Below are positions 18,918-50,094 of a stretch of DNA of 64,000 bases, piece by piece. The position numbers and the translations under genes are program-made. Positions within the stretch are counted from its first letter, which is position 1; each line of letters opens with the position of its first letter. Under the pieces are notes generated by a model. That model ran no database searches, had not been told where the DNA came from, and was given only the letters and a program-made list of their open reading frames with translations. The DNA comes from Escherichia coli (GTDB lineage Bacteria; Pseudomonadota; Gammaproteobacteria; Enterobacterales; Enterobacteriaceae), in NCBI RefSeq assembly GCF_024502345.1, contig NZ_JALDNN010000001.1. The stretch is one strand, 5' to 3'.

Positions 18918-19202
18918 ATGAAAATGGCCAATCATCCCCGCCCGGGGGACATTATTCAGGAATCACTGGACGAACTTAATGTCAGCCTGCGCGAGTTTGC
19001 CAGAGCAATGGAAATTGCTCCCTCAACGGCAAGCCGATTGCTGACAGGAAAAGCAGCTTTGACGCCAGAAATGGCAATTAAACTTTCCGTGGTGATCGGC
19101 AGTTCGCCGCAAATGTGGCTGAATCTGCAAAACGCCTGGAGTCTGGCAGAGGCAGAAAAAACGGTGGATGTGTCGCGATTACGCCGTCTGGTTACGCAAT
19201 AA
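18918..19202 (+). CDS. yddM: HigA-like XRE-family HTH protein (orphan antitoxin-like)
   Basis: 94-aa [45 protein letters not shown]... with an HTH motif. Confidence 0.8.
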
Positions 19203-19253
19203 AAAAATGGCACCTTATAAAGCGCCATTTGAAACTGATGACAAATGCAACAT

Positions 19254-19370
19254 TGCCCGATGCGCTACGCTTATCAGGCCTACACGTTCACTGCAATCTA
19301 TTGGATTTGAACGGTTTGTAGGCCGGATAAGGCGTTCACGCCGCATCCGGCATGAACAAAGCCTACGTTG
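19254..19370. repeat. BIME/REP cluster between yddM and fdnI
   Basis: Two inverted REP units (tgcccgatgcgctacgcttatcaggcctaca and gtaggccggataaggcgttcacgccgcatccggca). Confidence 0.75.
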
Positions 19371-19430
19371 TCTACAATATGAAAATGACGCCTTTTACAG
19401 CGCCATTTTCAGCTTAAAGTTCAAAAGAGA

Positions 19431-35485: not shown

Positions 35486-35563
35486 TTTTCACCCTGGCCG
35501 GATAGCCCTTCGCTCTCCGGCCACTTGCAGGCTATGATAGTTCTCCAGCCCAGGAGAACGTTA

Positions 35564-36064
35564 ATGAAACCGCAGGTTTACCACGTCGATGCTTTTACCT
35601 CTCAACCATTTCGCGGCAATTCTGCCGGTGTTGTTTTCCCCGCCGATAATCTTAGCGAAGCGCAAATGCAGCTTATCGCCCGCGAATTAGGTCATTCGGA
35701 AACCACTTTTCTGCTGCACAGCGACGACAGCGATGTGCGCATCCGCTACTTTACGCCAACCGTTGAAGTTCCGATTTGTGGTCACGCGACAGTAGCTGCA
35801 CACTATGTACGTGCGAAGGTGTTAGGTTTAGGAAATTGCACGGTCTGGCAAACATCGCTGGCAGGAAAACATCGCGTGACTATCGAAAAGCACCACGATG
35901 GTTATCGTATTTCGCTGGAACAAGGTACGCCGGGCTTTGAGCCACCGCTGGAAGGTGAAACACGTGCGGCGATTATCAACGCGCTTCATCTCACTGAGGA
36001 CGATATTCTGCCAGGCTTGCCAATTCAGGTGGCAACAACAGGACACTCAAAAGGGCTTTGTTGA
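35564..36064 (+). pseudogene. yddE: PhzF-family isomerase-like gene, 3'-truncated by the IS903 insertion
   Basis: Start MKPQVYHVDAFTSQPFRGNSAGVVF. The reading frame runs into the IS left inverted repeat and ends at a stop inside the IS after about 166 codons; full-length YddE is about 297 aa. Confidence 0.8.
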
Positions 36065-37110
36065 ATAAATCGAACTTTTGCTGAGTTGAAGGATCAGATC
36101 ACGTATCTTCCCGACAACGCAGACCGTTCCGTGGCAAAGCAAAAGTTCAAAATCACCAACTGGCCCACCTACAATAAAGCCCTCATCAACCGTGGCTCCA
36201 TAACTTTCTGGCTGGATGATGAAGCTATTCAGGCCTGGTATGAGTCAGCAACACCTTCTTCACGAGGCAGACCTCAGCGCTATTCTGACCTTGCCATCAC
36301 GACTGTGCTGGTCATTAAACGCGTATTCAGGCTGACCCTGCGCGCTGCGCAGGGCTTTATTGATTCCATTTTTTCTCTGATGAACGTTCCGCTACGCTGC
36401 CCGGATTACAGCTGTGTCAGCAGGCGGGCAAAGTCGGTTAATGTCAGTTTCAAAACGCCCACCCGGGGTGAAATCGCACACCTGGTAATTGATTCCACCG
36501 GGCTGAAGGTCTTCGGTGAAGGCGAGTGGAAAGTCAAAAAGCATGGCCAGGAACGCCGCCGTATCTGGCGTAAGCTGCATCTCGCCGTTGACAGTAAAAC
36601 ACATGAAATCATCTGCGCTGACCTGTCGCTGAACAACGTTACGGACTCAGAGGCCTTCCCCGGGTTAATCCGGCAAACCCACCGGAAAATCAGGTCAGCC
36701 GCCGCCGATGGCGCTTACGATACCCGGCTATGTCACGATGAACTGCGGCGTAAGAAAATCAGCGCGCTTATCCCTCCCCGAAAAGGTGCGGGTTACTGGC
36801 CCGGTGAATATGCAGACCGTAACCGTGCAGTGGCTAATCAGCGAATGACCGGGAGTAATGCGCGGTGGAAATGGACAACAGATTACAACCGTCGCTCGAT
36901 AGCGGAAACGGCGATGTACCGGGTAAAACAGCTGTTCGGGGGTTCACTGACACTGCGTGACTACGATGGTCAGGTTGCAGAGGCTATGGCCCTGGTACGA
37001 GCGCTGAACAAAATGACGAAAGCAGGTATGCCTGAAAGCGTGCGTATTGCCTGAAAACACAACCCGCTACGGGGGAGACTTACCCGAAATCTGATTTATT
37101 CAACAAAGCC
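36056..37110 (+). mobile_element. IS903-group insertion sequence (IS5 family)
   Basis: Terminal inverted repeats GGCTTTGTTGAATAAATC at 36056..36073 and its reverse complement at 37093..37110; about 1.05 kb with a single transposase ORF. No matching 9-bp direct repeat flanks the element (actcaaaag on the left, tatgcaagg on the right). Confidence 0.9.
36086..37054 (+). CDS. IS903-family transposase
   Basis: ORF containing ...FKITNWPTYNKALINRGSITFWLDDEAIQAWY...WKVKKHGQERRRIWRKLHLAVDS...DGAYDTRLCHDELRRKKISALIPPRKGAGYWP..., matching my recollection of the IS903/IS102 transposase. The true start codon may be internal to the track ORF. Confidence 0.85.
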   Translation: MKDQITYLPDNADRSVAKQKFKITNWPTYNKALINRGSITFWLDDEAIQAWYESATPSSRGRPQRYSDLAITTVLVIKRVFRLTLRAAQGFIDSIFSLMNVPLRCPDYSCVSRRAKSVNVSFKTPTRGEIAHLVIDSTGLKVFGEGEWKVKKHGQERRRIWRKLHLAVDSKTHEIICADLSLNNVTDSEAFPGLIRQTHRKIRSAAADGAYDTRLCHDELRRKKISALIPPRKGAGYWPGEYADRNRAVANQRMTGSNARWKWTTDYNRRSIAETAMYRVKQLFGGSLTLRDYDGQVAEAMALVRALNKMTKAGMPESVRIA

Positions 37111-37483
37111 TATGCAAGGAGTATTTGATCATGTATAAGCAATAAAAACAGCTTCAGGAAATAAGGAATATCGCAATTTTTAAACATAAAATGCGAATCG
37201 TTCAATACAAAAAAGCAGCGTTGCGTAATCTTTCCCTGATTAAATACGCTACTGCCCTACCCTGATGACATGATCTGCACTGCACTATCATATAGACATG
37301 TTTCTCAACATGCGAAAAGATGTTTTATTTTCGGATTATATTAAATTGATATTTCATATAAAAAATGAAATTACATCAATCATATAAATAATTGTACCAA
37401 CTTTAATTACTATTCATAGCAAACAAATGGATATCCAGTTAACTACGCCAGTGATTCATTAACATTAACCTCCGGCATTATTG

Positions 37484-38101
37484 TTAAATAATGACATTCC
37501 TTTTTAATACTTCTTGTAATTTCGGTAACTGACATACAGCATCAGCAATCGCACTGATATTCGTGGCATTATCCTGAAACCATTCATGCCCAGGCCCCCA
37601 TGTACGCATAGTGCAAAGATAACAGTCCACCAGCGTTAGTTGCTCACCAAACGCATAAGGTTCAGCAGTGAGCTGCGAATTCAGCCAGATATAAAGCGAT
37701 TTTCGATATTCAATAACATTCTTCTTTAACTGTTCAGGTGCGTCAGGAGCCCAACGCTCAGGGTAATCGGCGAAAGTGAATGTTGGATAGATATTAGCAA
37801 CCAGCCAGACCAATAGCCGTTGAAACTGCTGGCGTTCGGTGCGCCCAACCGGTGGCGCAAGGTCCGGGCGACGATCGAGAACCATCAATGCAATCGCCGC
37901 TGTCTCCGTCATAATCTCGTCATTTTCCAATGCCAGTGTCGGAACCTGACACAACGGGTTCAGGGTTTTCAATAACTCGCGTGAAGCTCCCTCGTGGTCA
38001 AAACCACTGACATCAACGAACTGATAAGGAATATCAGCCAGTGTTAGCATCAGCTCACTGATTGTAGAGCCCCATCCGGGTACGCCATACACCTTAATCA
38101 T
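37484..38101 (-). CDS. yncG: Glutathione S-transferase homolog
   Basis: 205-aa ORF MIKVYGVPGWGSTISELMLTLADIPYQFVDV... with a GST thioredoxin-like N-terminal domain; next to ansP. Confidence 0.8.
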   Translation of the reverse strand: MIKVYGVPGWGSTISELMLTLADIPYQFVDVSGFDHEGASRELLKTLNPLCQVPTLALENDEIMTETAAIALMVLDRRPDLAPPVGRTERQQFQRLLVWLVANIYPTFTFADYPERWAPDAPEQLKKNVIEYRKSLYIWLNSQLTAEPYAFGEQLTLVDCYLCTMRTWGPGHEWFQDNATNISAIADAVCQLPKLQEVLKRNVII

Positions 38102-46785: not shown

Positions 46786-46959
46786 TTAAAACAGTGAAAA
46801 CAACAGCGCCACCGGGAAACTCATCGGCCATGTGGCCCCCACCAGAAAGGCGCTTAAGAAACGGATGCGTTTCTTATCGTGAGAAAGAAACCAGGTGATA
46901 AGAAATGCGATTGCTGCCATAACCGCATAAAAAACAAGCATGTGTTGATAGAGAGACAT
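46786..46959 (-). CDS. ortT: Small membrane toxin OrtT (orphan toxin, GhoT-like)
   Basis: 57-aa ORF MSLYQHMLVFYAVMAAIAFLITWFLSHDKKRIRFLSAFLVGATWPMSFPVALLFSLF from the internal ATG of the track ORF. Confidence 0.8.
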   Translation of the reverse strand: MSLYQHMLVFYAVMAAIAFLITWFLSHDKKRIRFLSAFLVGATWPMSFPVALLFSLF

Positions 46960-47153
46960 GTACGGGCGTCCAGCCAGATGAATAAAACGCGCGCAAATAT
47001 GCGTCATTTTTTGACGTGCATCAAGTTTTTTCACCAGTTAGAGAAAAAATCATCAAACAGCAACTTGCCCTTATCCATCTTCAGAATGAGTATTATTGCG
47101 GATTTTCTTAACCCGTACTATACACATAGGGGCAATGATAAAAGGTGGCAAAA

Positions 47154-47249
47154 ATGAATGTTTCCAGTAGAACTGTAGTACTGATAAATGTCTTTGCTGC
47201 TGTTGGTTTGTTTACTCTTATCTCTATGAGATTTGGCTGGTTTATTTGA
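47154..47249 (+). CDS. yncL: Small membrane protein YncL (31 aa)
   Basis: ATG preceded by SD aaaggtgg; translation MNVSSRTVVLINVFAAVGLFTLISMRFGWFI; too short for the ORF track. Confidence 0.7.
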   Translation: MNVSSRTVVLINVFAAVGLFTLISMRFGWFI

Positions 47250-47270
47250 TGTAGTGATTTTGCACGCAGC

Positions 47271-47308
47271 ACGTACTGTCAGAGAAATCAACTCTCTGAC
47301 AGTACGCA
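47271..47308. repeat. Perfect 12-13 bp inverted repeat (hairpin) just downstream of yncL
   Basis: acgtactgtcagag ... ctctgacagtacg with an 8-10 nt loop; no clear U-tract. Confidence 0.6.
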
Positions 47309-47650
47309 AGATCTTCTCATACTCTCCAGGTTTACAACATTATCCTTAATATTTACTTCTTTTTGCTGGCATCTACATTGAAATGAGTAGAAAACATCCC
47401 CCTACTGTCGTCTATACAAACAGCTTACTGATTCAAAGGGAATCTTGTTTTCACATTTTTCTATCATGAATACTTTATACGCGCGGGAGTCTATAAATGC
47501 TTTATACTTTCAAGGAATAACGCAAATATAAAAAGATGGCGTAAAGTATATGCATGGCAGGATGTTTGCAACCTCCTTCATGACGCTGCCCCATTGAAAT
47601 TGCAAACCCCGCCCTGGTTATCTTGCCCATTTATCATGCAAAACAGATAA

Positions 47651-48460
47651 TTATAGGCCTCTGAATACCTCAGAAAGATTGAATTTTTTATAGTCCCTCT
47701 CTTGAATATTTCCATTTGAAATCAATCGATTCATCTCTTCAACAAAATAATTTATATCATCACACTTGTTATTATCCGGAAGATCTGAGTAGTTATAATT
47801 CCACCATTTTATTCTCAACAGTTCATCAATAACATTTGAATCAAACCTAAATCTGATTATTTTTGCAGGAACTCCTGCAACTATGGCATATGGGGGCACA
47901 TCTTTGGTAACAACGGAATTGGCAGCAATAACAGCACCATCACCTATTGTGATGCCACCTTTCAATACAACATCATTTCCTATCCAGACATCATTTCCTA
48001 TAATCGGATTTTCAGGTTTTGTAATGAATGGTTTCAATGTCCAGCTACGTTCAAACTCACTCATAGCAAACTTATCAAATTCACCGTTATAAGTCATCAT
48101 GTGAGTAGTAAAACGATTCAAAGAATGATTTCCACCCATTATTTTTACATTTGATGCAATACTACAAAATCGACCTATACGTATATTCCCTGAAAAATGA
48201 CAGGTCGGAAATGAAAAAGCGCCGACACTGGAGAAATTTTTTACAGGCATTGTTGAATATTCTTCAGCAATAACATTATCTTCAATTGTTATCTTGTCAC
48301 CTTTTGAGAAAAGAAATAAATTCCTTTCTTTATACGACTTCTTCCCCTTATGATTTAAAAAGATTTTATTATCCATACAAAACTCAAAGTGTTTTTTCGT
48401 CCATCTGAAGGTAAGGGGTTTATTTTTATCTTCCGTGAATTTGTACAATTGAACTTTCAT
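47651..48460 (-). CDS. Hexapeptide-repeat acetyltransferase, XAT family (CatB/Vat-like)
   Basis: 269-aa ORF; the C-terminal half (…GRFCSIASNVKIMGGNHSLNRF…IGNDVWIGNDVVLKGGITIGDGAVIAANSVVTKDVPPYAIVAGVPAKIIRFRFDSNVIDELLRIKWWNY…) closely resembles the conserved core of CatB chloramphenicol and Vat streptogramin-A acetyltransferases. Markedly AT-rich. Confidence 0.75.
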   Translation of the reverse strand: MKVQLYKFTEDKNKPLTFRWTKKHFEFCMDNKIFLNHKGKKSYKERNLFLFSKGDKITIEDNVIAEEYSTMPVKNFSSVGAFSFPTCHFSGNIRIGRFCSIASNVKIMGGNHSLNRFTTHMMTYNGEFDKFAMSEFERSWTLKPFITKPENPIIGNDVWIGNDVVLKGGITIGDGAVIAANSVVTKDVPPYAIVAGVPAKIIRFRFDSNVIDELLRIKWWNYNYSDLPDNNKCDDINYFVEEMNRLISNGNIQERDYKKFNLSEVFRGL

Positions 48461-48633
48461 TGTTAATACTTCTACTTATAAAGTATTAGTTTAATAACGA
48501 TACTCTAAAGCCTTATGCTAATCAACTGTGACAGGATGAAAAATCGCCATCAAACATTTAGCCTAATTTTTACGCTAGTTATTAATGTAATCATTCTAAT
48601 ACTTAACCGCCATTAAACTCAGAACCGAAAACG

Positions 48634-48660
48634 ATAGTGGCCGTCCTATAACAGCCACTA
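48634..48660 (-). terminator. Putative terminator after patD
   Basis: agtggc/gccact hairpin just downstream of the patD stop on the minus strand. Confidence 0.45.
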
Positions 48661-48669
48661 ACATCTAAC

Positions 48670-50094
48670 TTAATGTTTAACCATGACGTGGCGGACGACG
48701 GTGTAATCCTCCAGCCCATAAAGTGACATATCCTTGCCGTAACCAGAAAGTTTCTGCCCACCGTGCGGCATTTCACTTACCAGCATGAAATGGGTATTGA
48801 CCCAGGTACAACCATATTGCAGTCGTGCGCTGACGCGATGCGCCCTGCCCACATCTTTCGTCCATACCGAAGATGCAAGTCCGTACTGGCTGTCATTCGC
48901 CCAGTTCACCACCTGTTCTTCGTTGTCGAAGAGCGTAACACTCACTACTGGACCAAATACCTCTTTTTGCACGATGGCATCGTCCTGTAATGCGCCAGCC
49001 AGCAGCGTCGGCTCATAGTAATAGCCATTACCCTTGCGCTTTTCACCGCCAGTGATCACTTTGATGTGCCCTGTCGCTTTCGCCTCTTCTACTGCCTTGC
49101 TGACGCGTTCGAGATGCGCCAGCGAGCTTAAAGGTCCAAGCTCCGTAGACTCGTCATCCGGCGCACCAGATTTTAACGTTGCCACTGCAGCACCGAGTTT
49201 TTCCACCAACGTATCGTAAATGCCTTTTTGCGCGTAGATCCGACAAGCCGCAGTACAATCCTGTCCGGCATTGTAATAGCCAAATGTACGTACACCTTCG
49301 ACCACTGCTTCAATATCCGCATCATCAAAAACAATCACTGGCGCTTTGCCACCAAGTTCCATATGAGTTCGCTTAATGGACGGCGCGGTATGGCTGATGA
49401 TGTGCTCGCCGGTGGCGATAGAGCCCGTCAGCGACACCATCCGCACTTTGGGATGACCGGTCAGCGGATCGCCCACCGTTTTGCCTCTGCCAAACAGCAC
49501 ATTAATCACGCCTGCCGGGAAGATATCTTTCGCCAGCCCTGCCAACTTCAACGCGGTCAGCGGGGTAATTTCTGATGGTTTAAGCACTACGCAGTTCCCT
49601 GCCGCCAGCGCCGGAGCAAGTTTCCACGCTGCCATCATCAGCGGATAATTCCACGGTGCGATAGAAGCCACGACCCCCAACGGATCGCGACGGATCATCG
49701 AAGTATGACCTTCAAGATATTCACCTGCCGCCAGACCATTCAGACAGCGCGCCGCACCCGCGAAAAAGCGAAAAACATCGACAATCGCCGGGATTTCATC
49801 ATTGAACGCACTATGCAGCGGTTTGCCACAATTACGGGACTCCAGTTCGGCAAAAACCTGACCATTTTCTTCGATTACATCAGCCAGTTTCAGCAGACAT
49901 TCCGCACGCACTTTCGGCGTGGTTTGCCCCCATTCGGCAAATGCTGCATCTGCCGCGCGCACAGCAGCATCGACCTGCTCTGCGGATGCCTCGGCAATCT
50001 CCAGTAAAACGTCCCCCGTTGCCGGACTATAGACAGGCTGTTTTTCCCCTTCGCCGCTAACCAGTTCTCCGTTAATCAGTAACTTATGTTGCAT
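48670..50094 (-). CDS. patD: Gamma-aminobutyraldehyde dehydrogenase (aldehyde dehydrogenase family)
   Basis: 474-aa ORF with ALDH catalytic region (…ELGGKAP…, …GQDCTAACR…); downstream of ydcSTUV. Confidence 0.9.

Follow-up and report, generated by a model that had tools for sequence, protein, structure and literature searches.

A CatB-related O-acetyltransferase on an accessory chromosomal islet of Escherichia coli, with a possible role in surface-glycan modification

The best-described enzymes of the xenobiotic acetyltransferase (XAT) branch of the hexapeptide acetyltransferases are the Vat proteins (VatD, 1khr; VatA, 4hur) and the CatB proteins (PaXAT, 1xat; VCA0300, 3eev). VatD, CatB and PaXAT are trimers, in which a loop histidine serves as the general base that takes the proton from the acceptor hydroxyl. 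Other hexapeptide acetyltransferases act on surface glycans, among them OatWY (2wlc) and NeuO (3jqy); the latter acts on polysialic acid, and neuO is a cargo gene of prophage CUS-3 that adjoins the tailspike gene. Here we describe an XAT-branch protein, possibly a modifier of surface glycans, whose gene forms a small accessory islet between yncL and patD in E. coli. It lies in a 64,000-nt stretch of the chromosome (contig NZ_JALDNN010000001.1 of assembly GCF_024502345.1), which we call the window and whose coordinates we use throughout. The window is colinear with, but inverted relative to, positions 1,499,925-1,571,572 of K-12 MG1655, and an earlier note made from its sequence alone had drawn attention to the gene.

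The local gene order is mcbR, curA, mnaT, ydcZ, ydcY, ortT, yncL, the insert, patD and ydcV-ydcS. The earlier note had expected no such gene between patD and yncL in K-12, and alignment bears this out; MG1655 lacks exactly 47356..48668, a gap of 1313 nt, or 1324 nt if one copy of a flanking 11-nt direct repeat is included. The 269-aa minus-strand open reading frame (ORF) at 47651..48460 is present as the note described, and its product is identical to RefSeq WP_060659526.1, annotated as 'CatB-related O-acetyltransferase'. The description of an AT-rich single-gene islet is also borne out. In 300-nt windows, GC content drops to 0.29-0.38 at ~46900-48700, compared with 0.50-0.57 in patD and the genes beyond, and the insert holds this one ORF, with 33.1% GC (28.5% at third codon positions), against 34.3% for the insert and 49.9% for the whole window. 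The locus thus has two traits of a horizontal islet: deviant base composition (34% vs 50% GC) and variable presence at a fixed site among genomes of the same species.

Hexapep was the only Pfam family matched by the protein. Its best NCBIfam matches, over residues ~59-232, were TIGR03308 (128.2 bits), Vat (126.8), CatB (107.3) and ApmA (84), all below the curated cut-offs of these families (201.65 for TIGR03308, 300 for Vat NF000311, 350 for CatB NF000490 and 550 for ApmA NF000084). The note's caution that homology does not establish a resistance function was therefore well placed. The Vat and CatB matches span ~150-170 residues, whereas those to LacA (63 bits, cut-off 347) and Maa (52 bits, cut-off 314) are limited to ~50 residues (153-203). 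These long, strong matches on one side and short, weak ones on the other place the protein in the XAT branch rather than among the LacA/Maa sugar O-acetyltransferases, the alternative that the note had named and for which no full-length match was found. In a phmmer search against the PDB, VatD was matched with E=5e-30. VatD His82 (GANHRM) aligned with GGNH112SL of our protein, and residues 198-222 aligned with VatD 160-185 at high posterior probability, so that RF..LL.IKWWN corresponds to the VatD C-terminal segment. In an alignment of 47 relatives, R205, W219 and W220 are invariant and His112 is near-invariant (conserved in at least 90%). The AlphaFold monomer model is confident (mean predicted local distance difference test score, pLDDT, 91.8), and its top Foldseek matches in the PDB are VatD, VatA and CatB. 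The marks of the XAT class, namely tandem hexapeptide repeats forming a left-handed beta-helix, a loop histidine and the C-terminal RF…LL…WW segment, are all present, and the XAT core seen in the earlier note is confirmed by Pfam, NCBIfam, PDB sequence matches and the structure model alike. Judged by sequence, we class the protein as a member of the XAT branch other than Vat, CatB or ApmA.

The note had also claimed an N-terminal extension of ~70 residues. An extension exists, but it is shorter; alignments to Vat and CatB begin at residues 58-76 of our protein opposite their residues 25-46, which leaves a net surplus of only ~30-36 residues (~33 over VatD), and the C-terminus has ~20 extra residues. 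Both the N-terminal motif FRWTKxHxEFCxDNxIFL and the C-terminal tail are conserved across the 47 relatives. We considered whether the N-terminal segment is an independent domain that might hint at function, and rejected this, since a profile of its 62 residues found only 36 proteins among 1.84 billion representatives, nearly all from the same family or fragments of it. In the AFDB50 database, the whole 269-residue fold recurs (TM score ~0.8) in many 'CatB-related' proteins of 250-290 aa from many phyla, some of them fused to a glycerophosphodiester phosphodiesterase or ATP-grasp domain. The extension is thus the hallmark of a distinct, widespread and uncharacterised XAT subfamily. Our literature search found no paper on this gene, and an exact-sequence look-up of a Pectobacterium parmentieri relative (P0048) returned no record.

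To place the gene within the species, we counted the insert in complete E. coli genomes. It occurs in 1158 of 5426 (~21%), at the yncL-patD site and essentially as one copy each (median one), with 1148 genomes carrying at least 80% of its length; Shigella flexneri also carries the protein. The gene is therefore accessory, as the note had proposed, and not a core gene shared by K-12 and all E. coli. The horizontal acquisition that the note had proposed alongside does not appear to be recent. The islet falls into two allele classes ~5% apart: ~1006 genomes match the window at 95-99% or more identity, and the other 152 at 90-95%. The frame of 269 codons is intact in both classes. In a strain with the divergent allele (eco-241, in which the stretch upstream of the ORF is 13 nt longer), patD differs from that of the window at 58 of 1425 nt (4.1%), while K-12 patD differs by 1.4%. 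The islet has thus diverged in step with neighbouring patD, which marks it as a long-standing presence/absence polymorphism and not a new arrival. The ratio of nonsynonymous to synonymous divergence (dN/dS) is 0.15 between the two allele classes and 0.08 in comparison with Citrobacter, where dS exceeds 1. The gene is under purifying selection and, given the intact frame in both allele classes, appears to be functional. IS1 insertions interrupt it or have removed part of it in some E. coli genomes (H84, H87 and H95), indicating occasional loss of function.

The homologous genes of Citrobacter and Cedecea (loci L003 and L006) are likewise AT-rich (33-37% GC), in genomes of ~50-55% GC. As the copies of Citrobacter and E. 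coli are separated by a dS above 1, their AT-richness seems to have been maintained and not simply to be the residue of a recent transfer. In 72,556 plasmid records, no true plasmid was found to carry a close full-length copy, the sole match above 45% identity being a 4.9-Mb record, and the 50,697 isolated phage genomes held no close homologue (best match 35-42% identity over the core). PADLOC recognised no defence system, and the PHROGs matches were to families of unknown function only. A pattern scan of genome contigs, made with back-translated patterns from the conserved core and hence swamped by generic XAT genes, returned a single close relative (Enterobacter sp. Ag1) and is uninformative on the islet in other Escherichia species.

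The gene neighbourhoods of relatives bear on the likely function. In Pectobacterium brasiliense and P. fontis, the orthologues occupy the same slot within the waa cluster for the lipopolysaccharide (LPS) core, flanked on one side by GT9, GT4, GT8, GT8 and GT2 glycosyltransferase genes and on the other by waaA, coaD and mutM; the P. fontis protein can be aligned from end to end with ours (residues 15-269, 51% identity). The homologue of Vibrio bivalvicida is flanked by waaA and a heptosyltransferase gene, that of Roseivirga lies among wecE-like, wzx, wecF-like and GT4 genes, and that of Lysobacter is next to a gene for a TagD-like cytidylyltransferase. Embedding in a glycan cluster is thus seen in Pectobacterium (two species), Vibrio and Roseivirga, but not in the E. 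coli copy. A second kind of context is found in prophages and viral contigs. In Providencia prophages, the tail-fibre gene is immediately followed by a homologue (55% identity) together with a GT52 glycosyltransferase gene as its partner, and in Kluyvera (53%) the homologue directly follows a tail-fibre or tail-fibre-assembly gene. The same holds for three viral contigs (L109, L111 and L114), where it stands directly 3' of such genes; L109 has a P2-like order, with the homologue between tail-fibre genes H and G and sheath gene FI. The site after the tail-fibre genes is the usual place for receptor-modifying genes, neuO in CUS-3 being one example. In the P. rettgeri prophages (L008-L010), the homologue and its GT52 partner also adjoin variable defence-like cargo: a DarT/DarG pair in one, and a retron-like pair of reverse transcriptase and AAA ATPase by the integrase gene in the others. 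Stand-alone copies occur in Citrobacter (77% identity), Cedecea (71%), Rahnella, Apirhabdus and Candidatus Symbiopectobacterium, along with one copy adjacent to icd. The Symbiopectobacterium homologue lies downstream of pspF-pspABC, between the two permease genes (sapB/sapC-like) of a sapABCDF-like operon for a peptide ABC transporter.

Within E. coli, the islet co-occurs with one type of LPS core. We took waaL-waaD of strain Sakai as a marker of the R3 core and calculated the overlap by inclusion-exclusion over the same 5426 genomes. The islet is found in 1158 genomes, R3 waaL-waaD in 1363 and either in 1615, meaning that 906 have both, compared with 291 expected if the two were independent. 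R3 is present in 78% of islet-plus genomes and the islet in 66% of R3 genomes, against 252 of 4063 non-R3 genomes (6.2%). Identity bands place ~143 of the 152 divergent-allele genomes in the R3 group as well. Among 60 genomes sampled at even spacing, R3 occurred in 12/13 islet-plus and 4/46 islet-minus genomes; by flank identity, three of these four were O157:H7 or O157:H7-like. The ten islet-minus genomes whose flanks are closest to the window are all non-R3. S. flexneri has an R3 core (PMC11813082), and R3 dominates phylogroups B1, D and E, with clade structure within D (PMC8715443).

Taken together, we see about an even chance that the product is a cytoplasmic O-acetyltransferase of surface glycans, acting in E. 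coli most likely on the LPS core. A surface-glycan acceptor is favoured because three independent genera keep the gene in core or polysaccharide clusters, because five prophage contexts place it at receptor-modifying sites, and because its distribution in E. coli tracks a core type. By analogy with VatD, CatB and PaXAT, the enzyme would be a soluble left-handed beta-helix protein, expected to form a trimer, in which His112 as general base would take the proton from the acceptor hydroxyl and the acetyl group would then pass to it from acetyl-CoA at the subunit interface. The acceptor would most probably be a sugar in a cell-surface glycan. Its acetylation would take place at the cytoplasmic face, ahead of export, and would alter a structure that phages, antibodies or complement recognise. 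That the gene works on its own would also be explained if one enzyme modifies a glycan that is already there. The family may act as a self-contained 'moron' for receptor modification: some genera keep it in the LPS-core cluster, the prophages of others carry it beside tail-fibre genes, and in E. coli, Citrobacter, Cedecea and Rahnella it has remained on the chromosome as a lone islet. In E. coli this islet is a 1.3-kb accessory segment with a single functional gene, which probably has its own promoter.

A narrower version of this is that the islet encodes an unrecognised LPS-core O-acetyltransferase of phage origin that modifies the R3-type core in E. coli and S. flexneri and alters susceptibility to core-binding phages. 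Classical work on core structure used de-O-acylated material, in which such a modification would escape detection. We offer this reading tentatively, and regard it as possible but on balance doubtful. Recognition by antibodies or complement would possibly be affected too, in B1 and D lineages that include Shiga toxin-producing E. coli (STEC) other than O157 (O26, O111 and O121).

Several observations weigh against a glycan acceptor. The closest characterised proteins, by both sequence and fold, are antibiotic acetyltransferases and not glycan enzymes. The E. coli copy has no neighbour involved in glycan synthesis, the Citrobacter, Cedecea, Rahnella, Apirhabdus, Symbiopectobacterium and icd-adjacent copies are singletons, and two distant homologues (from Pseudomonas and Clostridia) have no glycan genes nearby. 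The association with R3 is confounded by shared ancestry, which could yield much of the signal in counts that are uncorrected for phylogeny. Neither is the link strict, as seen from the 252 non-R3 genomes with the islet and from the main exception, O157:H7, which has the R3 core and no islet; the flanks of four such genomes (H104, H105, H120 and H121) are 99.0% identical to the window. Finally, we found no literature report of O-acetyl groups on the R3 core.

The main rival is that the gene is a single-gene resistance determinant, whose product detoxifies a hydroxyl-bearing small molecule such as a chloramphenicol-like, streptogramin-A-like, aminocyclitol or other natural product. The best sequence and structure matches are to Vat, CatB and ApmA, with the catalytic histidine and the XAT C-terminal segment conserved, and most enterobacterial copies stand alone, as a one-gene phenotype would predict. 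ApmA (7jm0 and 7uuj among the matches) is also an example of an XAT enzyme with additional N-terminal parts that accepts unexpected drug substrates. Even so, the scores are far under the cut-offs (127 of 300 bits for Vat, 107 of 350 for CatB and 84 of 550 for ApmA), and the gene differs from catB and vat in having no close full-length copy on plasmids. Orthologues in LPS-core clusters and beside prophage tail-fibre genes are also hard to reconcile with drug detoxification; the contexts of relatives point to modification of surface glycans instead, and we hold the resistance explanation to be rather unlikely. It seems less plausible still that the enzyme acetylates some endogenous or environmental metabolite that is neither antibiotic nor surface glycan, for example a phosphonate-related compound. 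This would fit TIGR03308, a family of hexapeptide transferases in phosphonate metabolism, as the nominally top NCBIfam match (128 bits), as well as the adjoining genes for putrescine and aminobutyraldehyde metabolism (patD and ydcSTUV). That match, however, falls below its cut-off of 201.65 bits, and phn genes are near none of the ~15 contexts examined. Adjacency to patD is not conserved in other species either, and a terminator-like hairpin separates patD from the acetyltransferase gene.

Could the islet instead be a functionless hitch-hiker in present-day E. coli, the silenced or decaying relic of an old transfer? The gene is very AT-rich with no consensus promoter detected, is disrupted by IS1 in some strains, has truncated versions in the protein databases and has been lost from ~79% of genomes. 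Against this stand the 269 codons, intact in two allele classes 5% apart with a dN/dS of 0.15, and the still lower ratio (0.08) across the more than one synonymous substitution per site that separates them from Citrobacter. Every invariant residue of the family is kept, and 1148 genomes hold at least 80% of the islet length. An inert remnant is, in our view, very improbable.

The features of the islet and its borders are listed in Table 1. Two alignment blocks with K-12 overlap by 11 nt in K-12 because CTTAATATTTA and CTTAATGTTTA flank the insert. This flanking direct repeat, which has one mismatch, could stem either from duplication or from microhomology used in a deletion. No mobility gene or terminal inverted repeats were found in the insert from the ORF list and a repeat scan. 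We rejected a transposon or integron cassette, as there is no transposase, terminal inverted repeat or attC-like site. The two islet-plus allele classes share the same 30 nt to the left of the insert, and this stretch differs at 8/30 positions from the islet-minus sequence, which is TACGATCTGCAATATTATCCTTAATGTTTA in 4/4 islet-minus strains of different lineages; the remaining flanks are only 1-2% divergent. A simple deletion between the 11-nt repeats, considered as the origin of the K-12 state, leaves the eight extra differences unexplained, and a plain insertion with target duplication likewise fails to account for the divergent 30 nt. The divergence would be explained if homologous recombination brought in the whole block from a diverged donor in which the insert was already present.

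Table 1. Features of the yncL-patD islet and its borders, in window coordinates.
Feature	Position	Strand	Description
Inverted repeat	47272..47306		Downstream of yncL; arms 47272-47285 and 47293-47306 (14 nt, 100% complementary), 7-nt loop
Islet-plus-specific segment	47326..47355		30 nt; 22/30 copy of the 30 nt preceding patD in islet-minus strains
Left direct-repeat copy	47345-47355		11 nt, CTTAATATTTA; last part of the 30-nt islet-plus segment
Insert proper	47356..48668		1313 nt, 34.3% GC; no counterpart in K-12 (alignment)
Non-coding stretch 3' of ORF	47356..47650	-	295 nt; no Rfam match
Acetyltransferase ORF	47651..48460	-	269 aa, ATG start; XAT-branch hexapeptide acetyltransferase; candidate catalytic residue His112
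Putative promoter/5' leader	48461..48541	-	~80 nt before the start codon; conserved with the Citrobacter locus (blastn)
Weak candidate promoter	TTGATT 48526-48521; TATCGT 48503-48498	-	17-nt spacer; read by eye, 8/12 consensus positions
Terminator-like hairpin	48635..48660	-	11 pairs, then T-rich tail TCGTTTTCGG; 10 nt past the patD stop, within the insert
Right direct-repeat copy	48669..48679		11 nt, CTTAATGTTTA; holds the patD stop codon (48670-48672, minus strand)

The earlier note had placed a perfect inverted repeat (47271..47308) at one edge of the AT-rich segment. The repeat is real, but the same hairpin is found in K-12 and in every islet-minus strain examined, from several lineages, so it is core DNA and we reject it as an end of the islet. 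Neither strand has a run of T after it, and a terminator scan made no call there. Its loop (47285-47293) occurs in two forms, AACTC or AGTGC (…AATCAACTC… and …AATCAGTGC…), and both are found in islet-plus and islet-minus strains, independent of islet state, a sign that recombination has occurred in the interval from the hairpin to the insert.

Inside the insert, the ~80 nt upstream of the ORF probably contain the gene's own promoter and leader, given their conservation with Citrobacter. A promoter scan found no consensus promoter above threshold for the acetyltransferase gene. On the other side of the gene, similarity ends at the 3' end of the ORF, and the non-coding stretch beyond is not homologous to the loci of Citrobacter, Cedecea or Enterobacter. 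In and around the islet, Rfam gave no match at E<=1. The hairpin following patD is the sole terminator-like site found by the scan in 47000-48800. As the insert would thereby supply a terminator to upstream patD, the patD transcript is predicted to end ahead of the acetyltransferase gene in islet-plus strains.

Elsewhere in the window, we noted further differences from K-12. At 36054-37485, an IS5-family transposase gene (NF033579, 357 bits; ORF 36086..37054, plus strand) replaces 8.5 kb of K-12 (1526863-1535368), comprising yncH, rhsE, ydcD, yncI, ydcC, pptA, yddH, nhoA and the 3' end of yddE, which is left truncated at 35525..36064. The arrangement suggests that the rhsE region was deleted in association with the IS. 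Position 60763/60764 is the empty site for K-12 IS609 (insQ, 1503161-1504908), which the window lacks. Between fdnI and yddM (19197-19408), the window has ~178 extra bases of palindromic units resembling repetitive extragenic palindromes and bacterial interspersed mosaic elements (REP/BIME-like), where the alignment blocks overlap. The sole Rfam match in the window above its gathering threshold was a SECIS_3 element (23381-23439, minus strand, 84 bits), within the counterpart of K-12 fdnG.

This is a small accessory gene, already generically annotated in RefSeq, for an uncharacterised member of a known enzyme class. It should not be read as a resistance gene on homology alone, since it fails every curated threshold for resistance families and is never plasmid-borne. 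If the product does acetylate a glycan, it would add an enzyme to the LPS-core pathway of E. coli and Shigella and suggest a function for the widespread, uncharacterised subfamily of 250-290-aa 'CatB-related' proteins that prophages carry by their tail-fibre genes. In STEC-rich lineages, phage host range would then depend in part on a strain-variable gene, a point of relevance to phage therapy and typing. An unrecognised, phage-type O-acetyltransferase in E. coli and Shigella with the R3 core would be moderately interesting both for LPS biology and for the study of phage host range.

Compared with known systems, the protein has most in common with Vat and CatB. It shares the left-handed beta-helix core (~33-35% identity over ~170-190 residues), the conserved histidine on a loop projecting from the helix (His82 in VatD, His79 in PaXAT and His112 here) and the C-terminal segment PAK.I..RF....I..LL...WWN. 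It differs from both in its ~30-36 extra N-terminal residues with their own motif and ~20 at the C-terminus, in scoring well under half of the curated cut-offs, and in a gene that is not borne on plasmids or integrons, with relatives in LPS and prophage tail-fibre contexts. With ApmA, only the beta-helix core aligns (residues 70-230 opposite 94-257 of the profile, 84 vs 550 bits), so the N-terminal segments of the two are unrelated by these tests.

The polysaccharide O-acetyltransferases of the WbbJ, WcaF and Cap5H types are hexapeptide enzymes too; they are cytoplasmic, and their genes lie in glycan clusters. The WbbJ match covers residues 79-205 (E=5e-20), but at 72 bits against a cut-off of 243, and enzymes of these types lack the XAT loop and C-terminal features that our protein has in common with Vat and CatB. 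One Pectobacterium relative is labelled 'Cap5H' by its source, and a different 'CatB-related O-acetyltransferase' sits in an E. coli capsule operon, in the sole E. coli paper that uses the name. CUS-3 was matched weakly by tblastn, and the position of neuO in that prophage is of the same kind as that of the homologues in Kluyvera, Providencia and the viral contigs L109 and L111.

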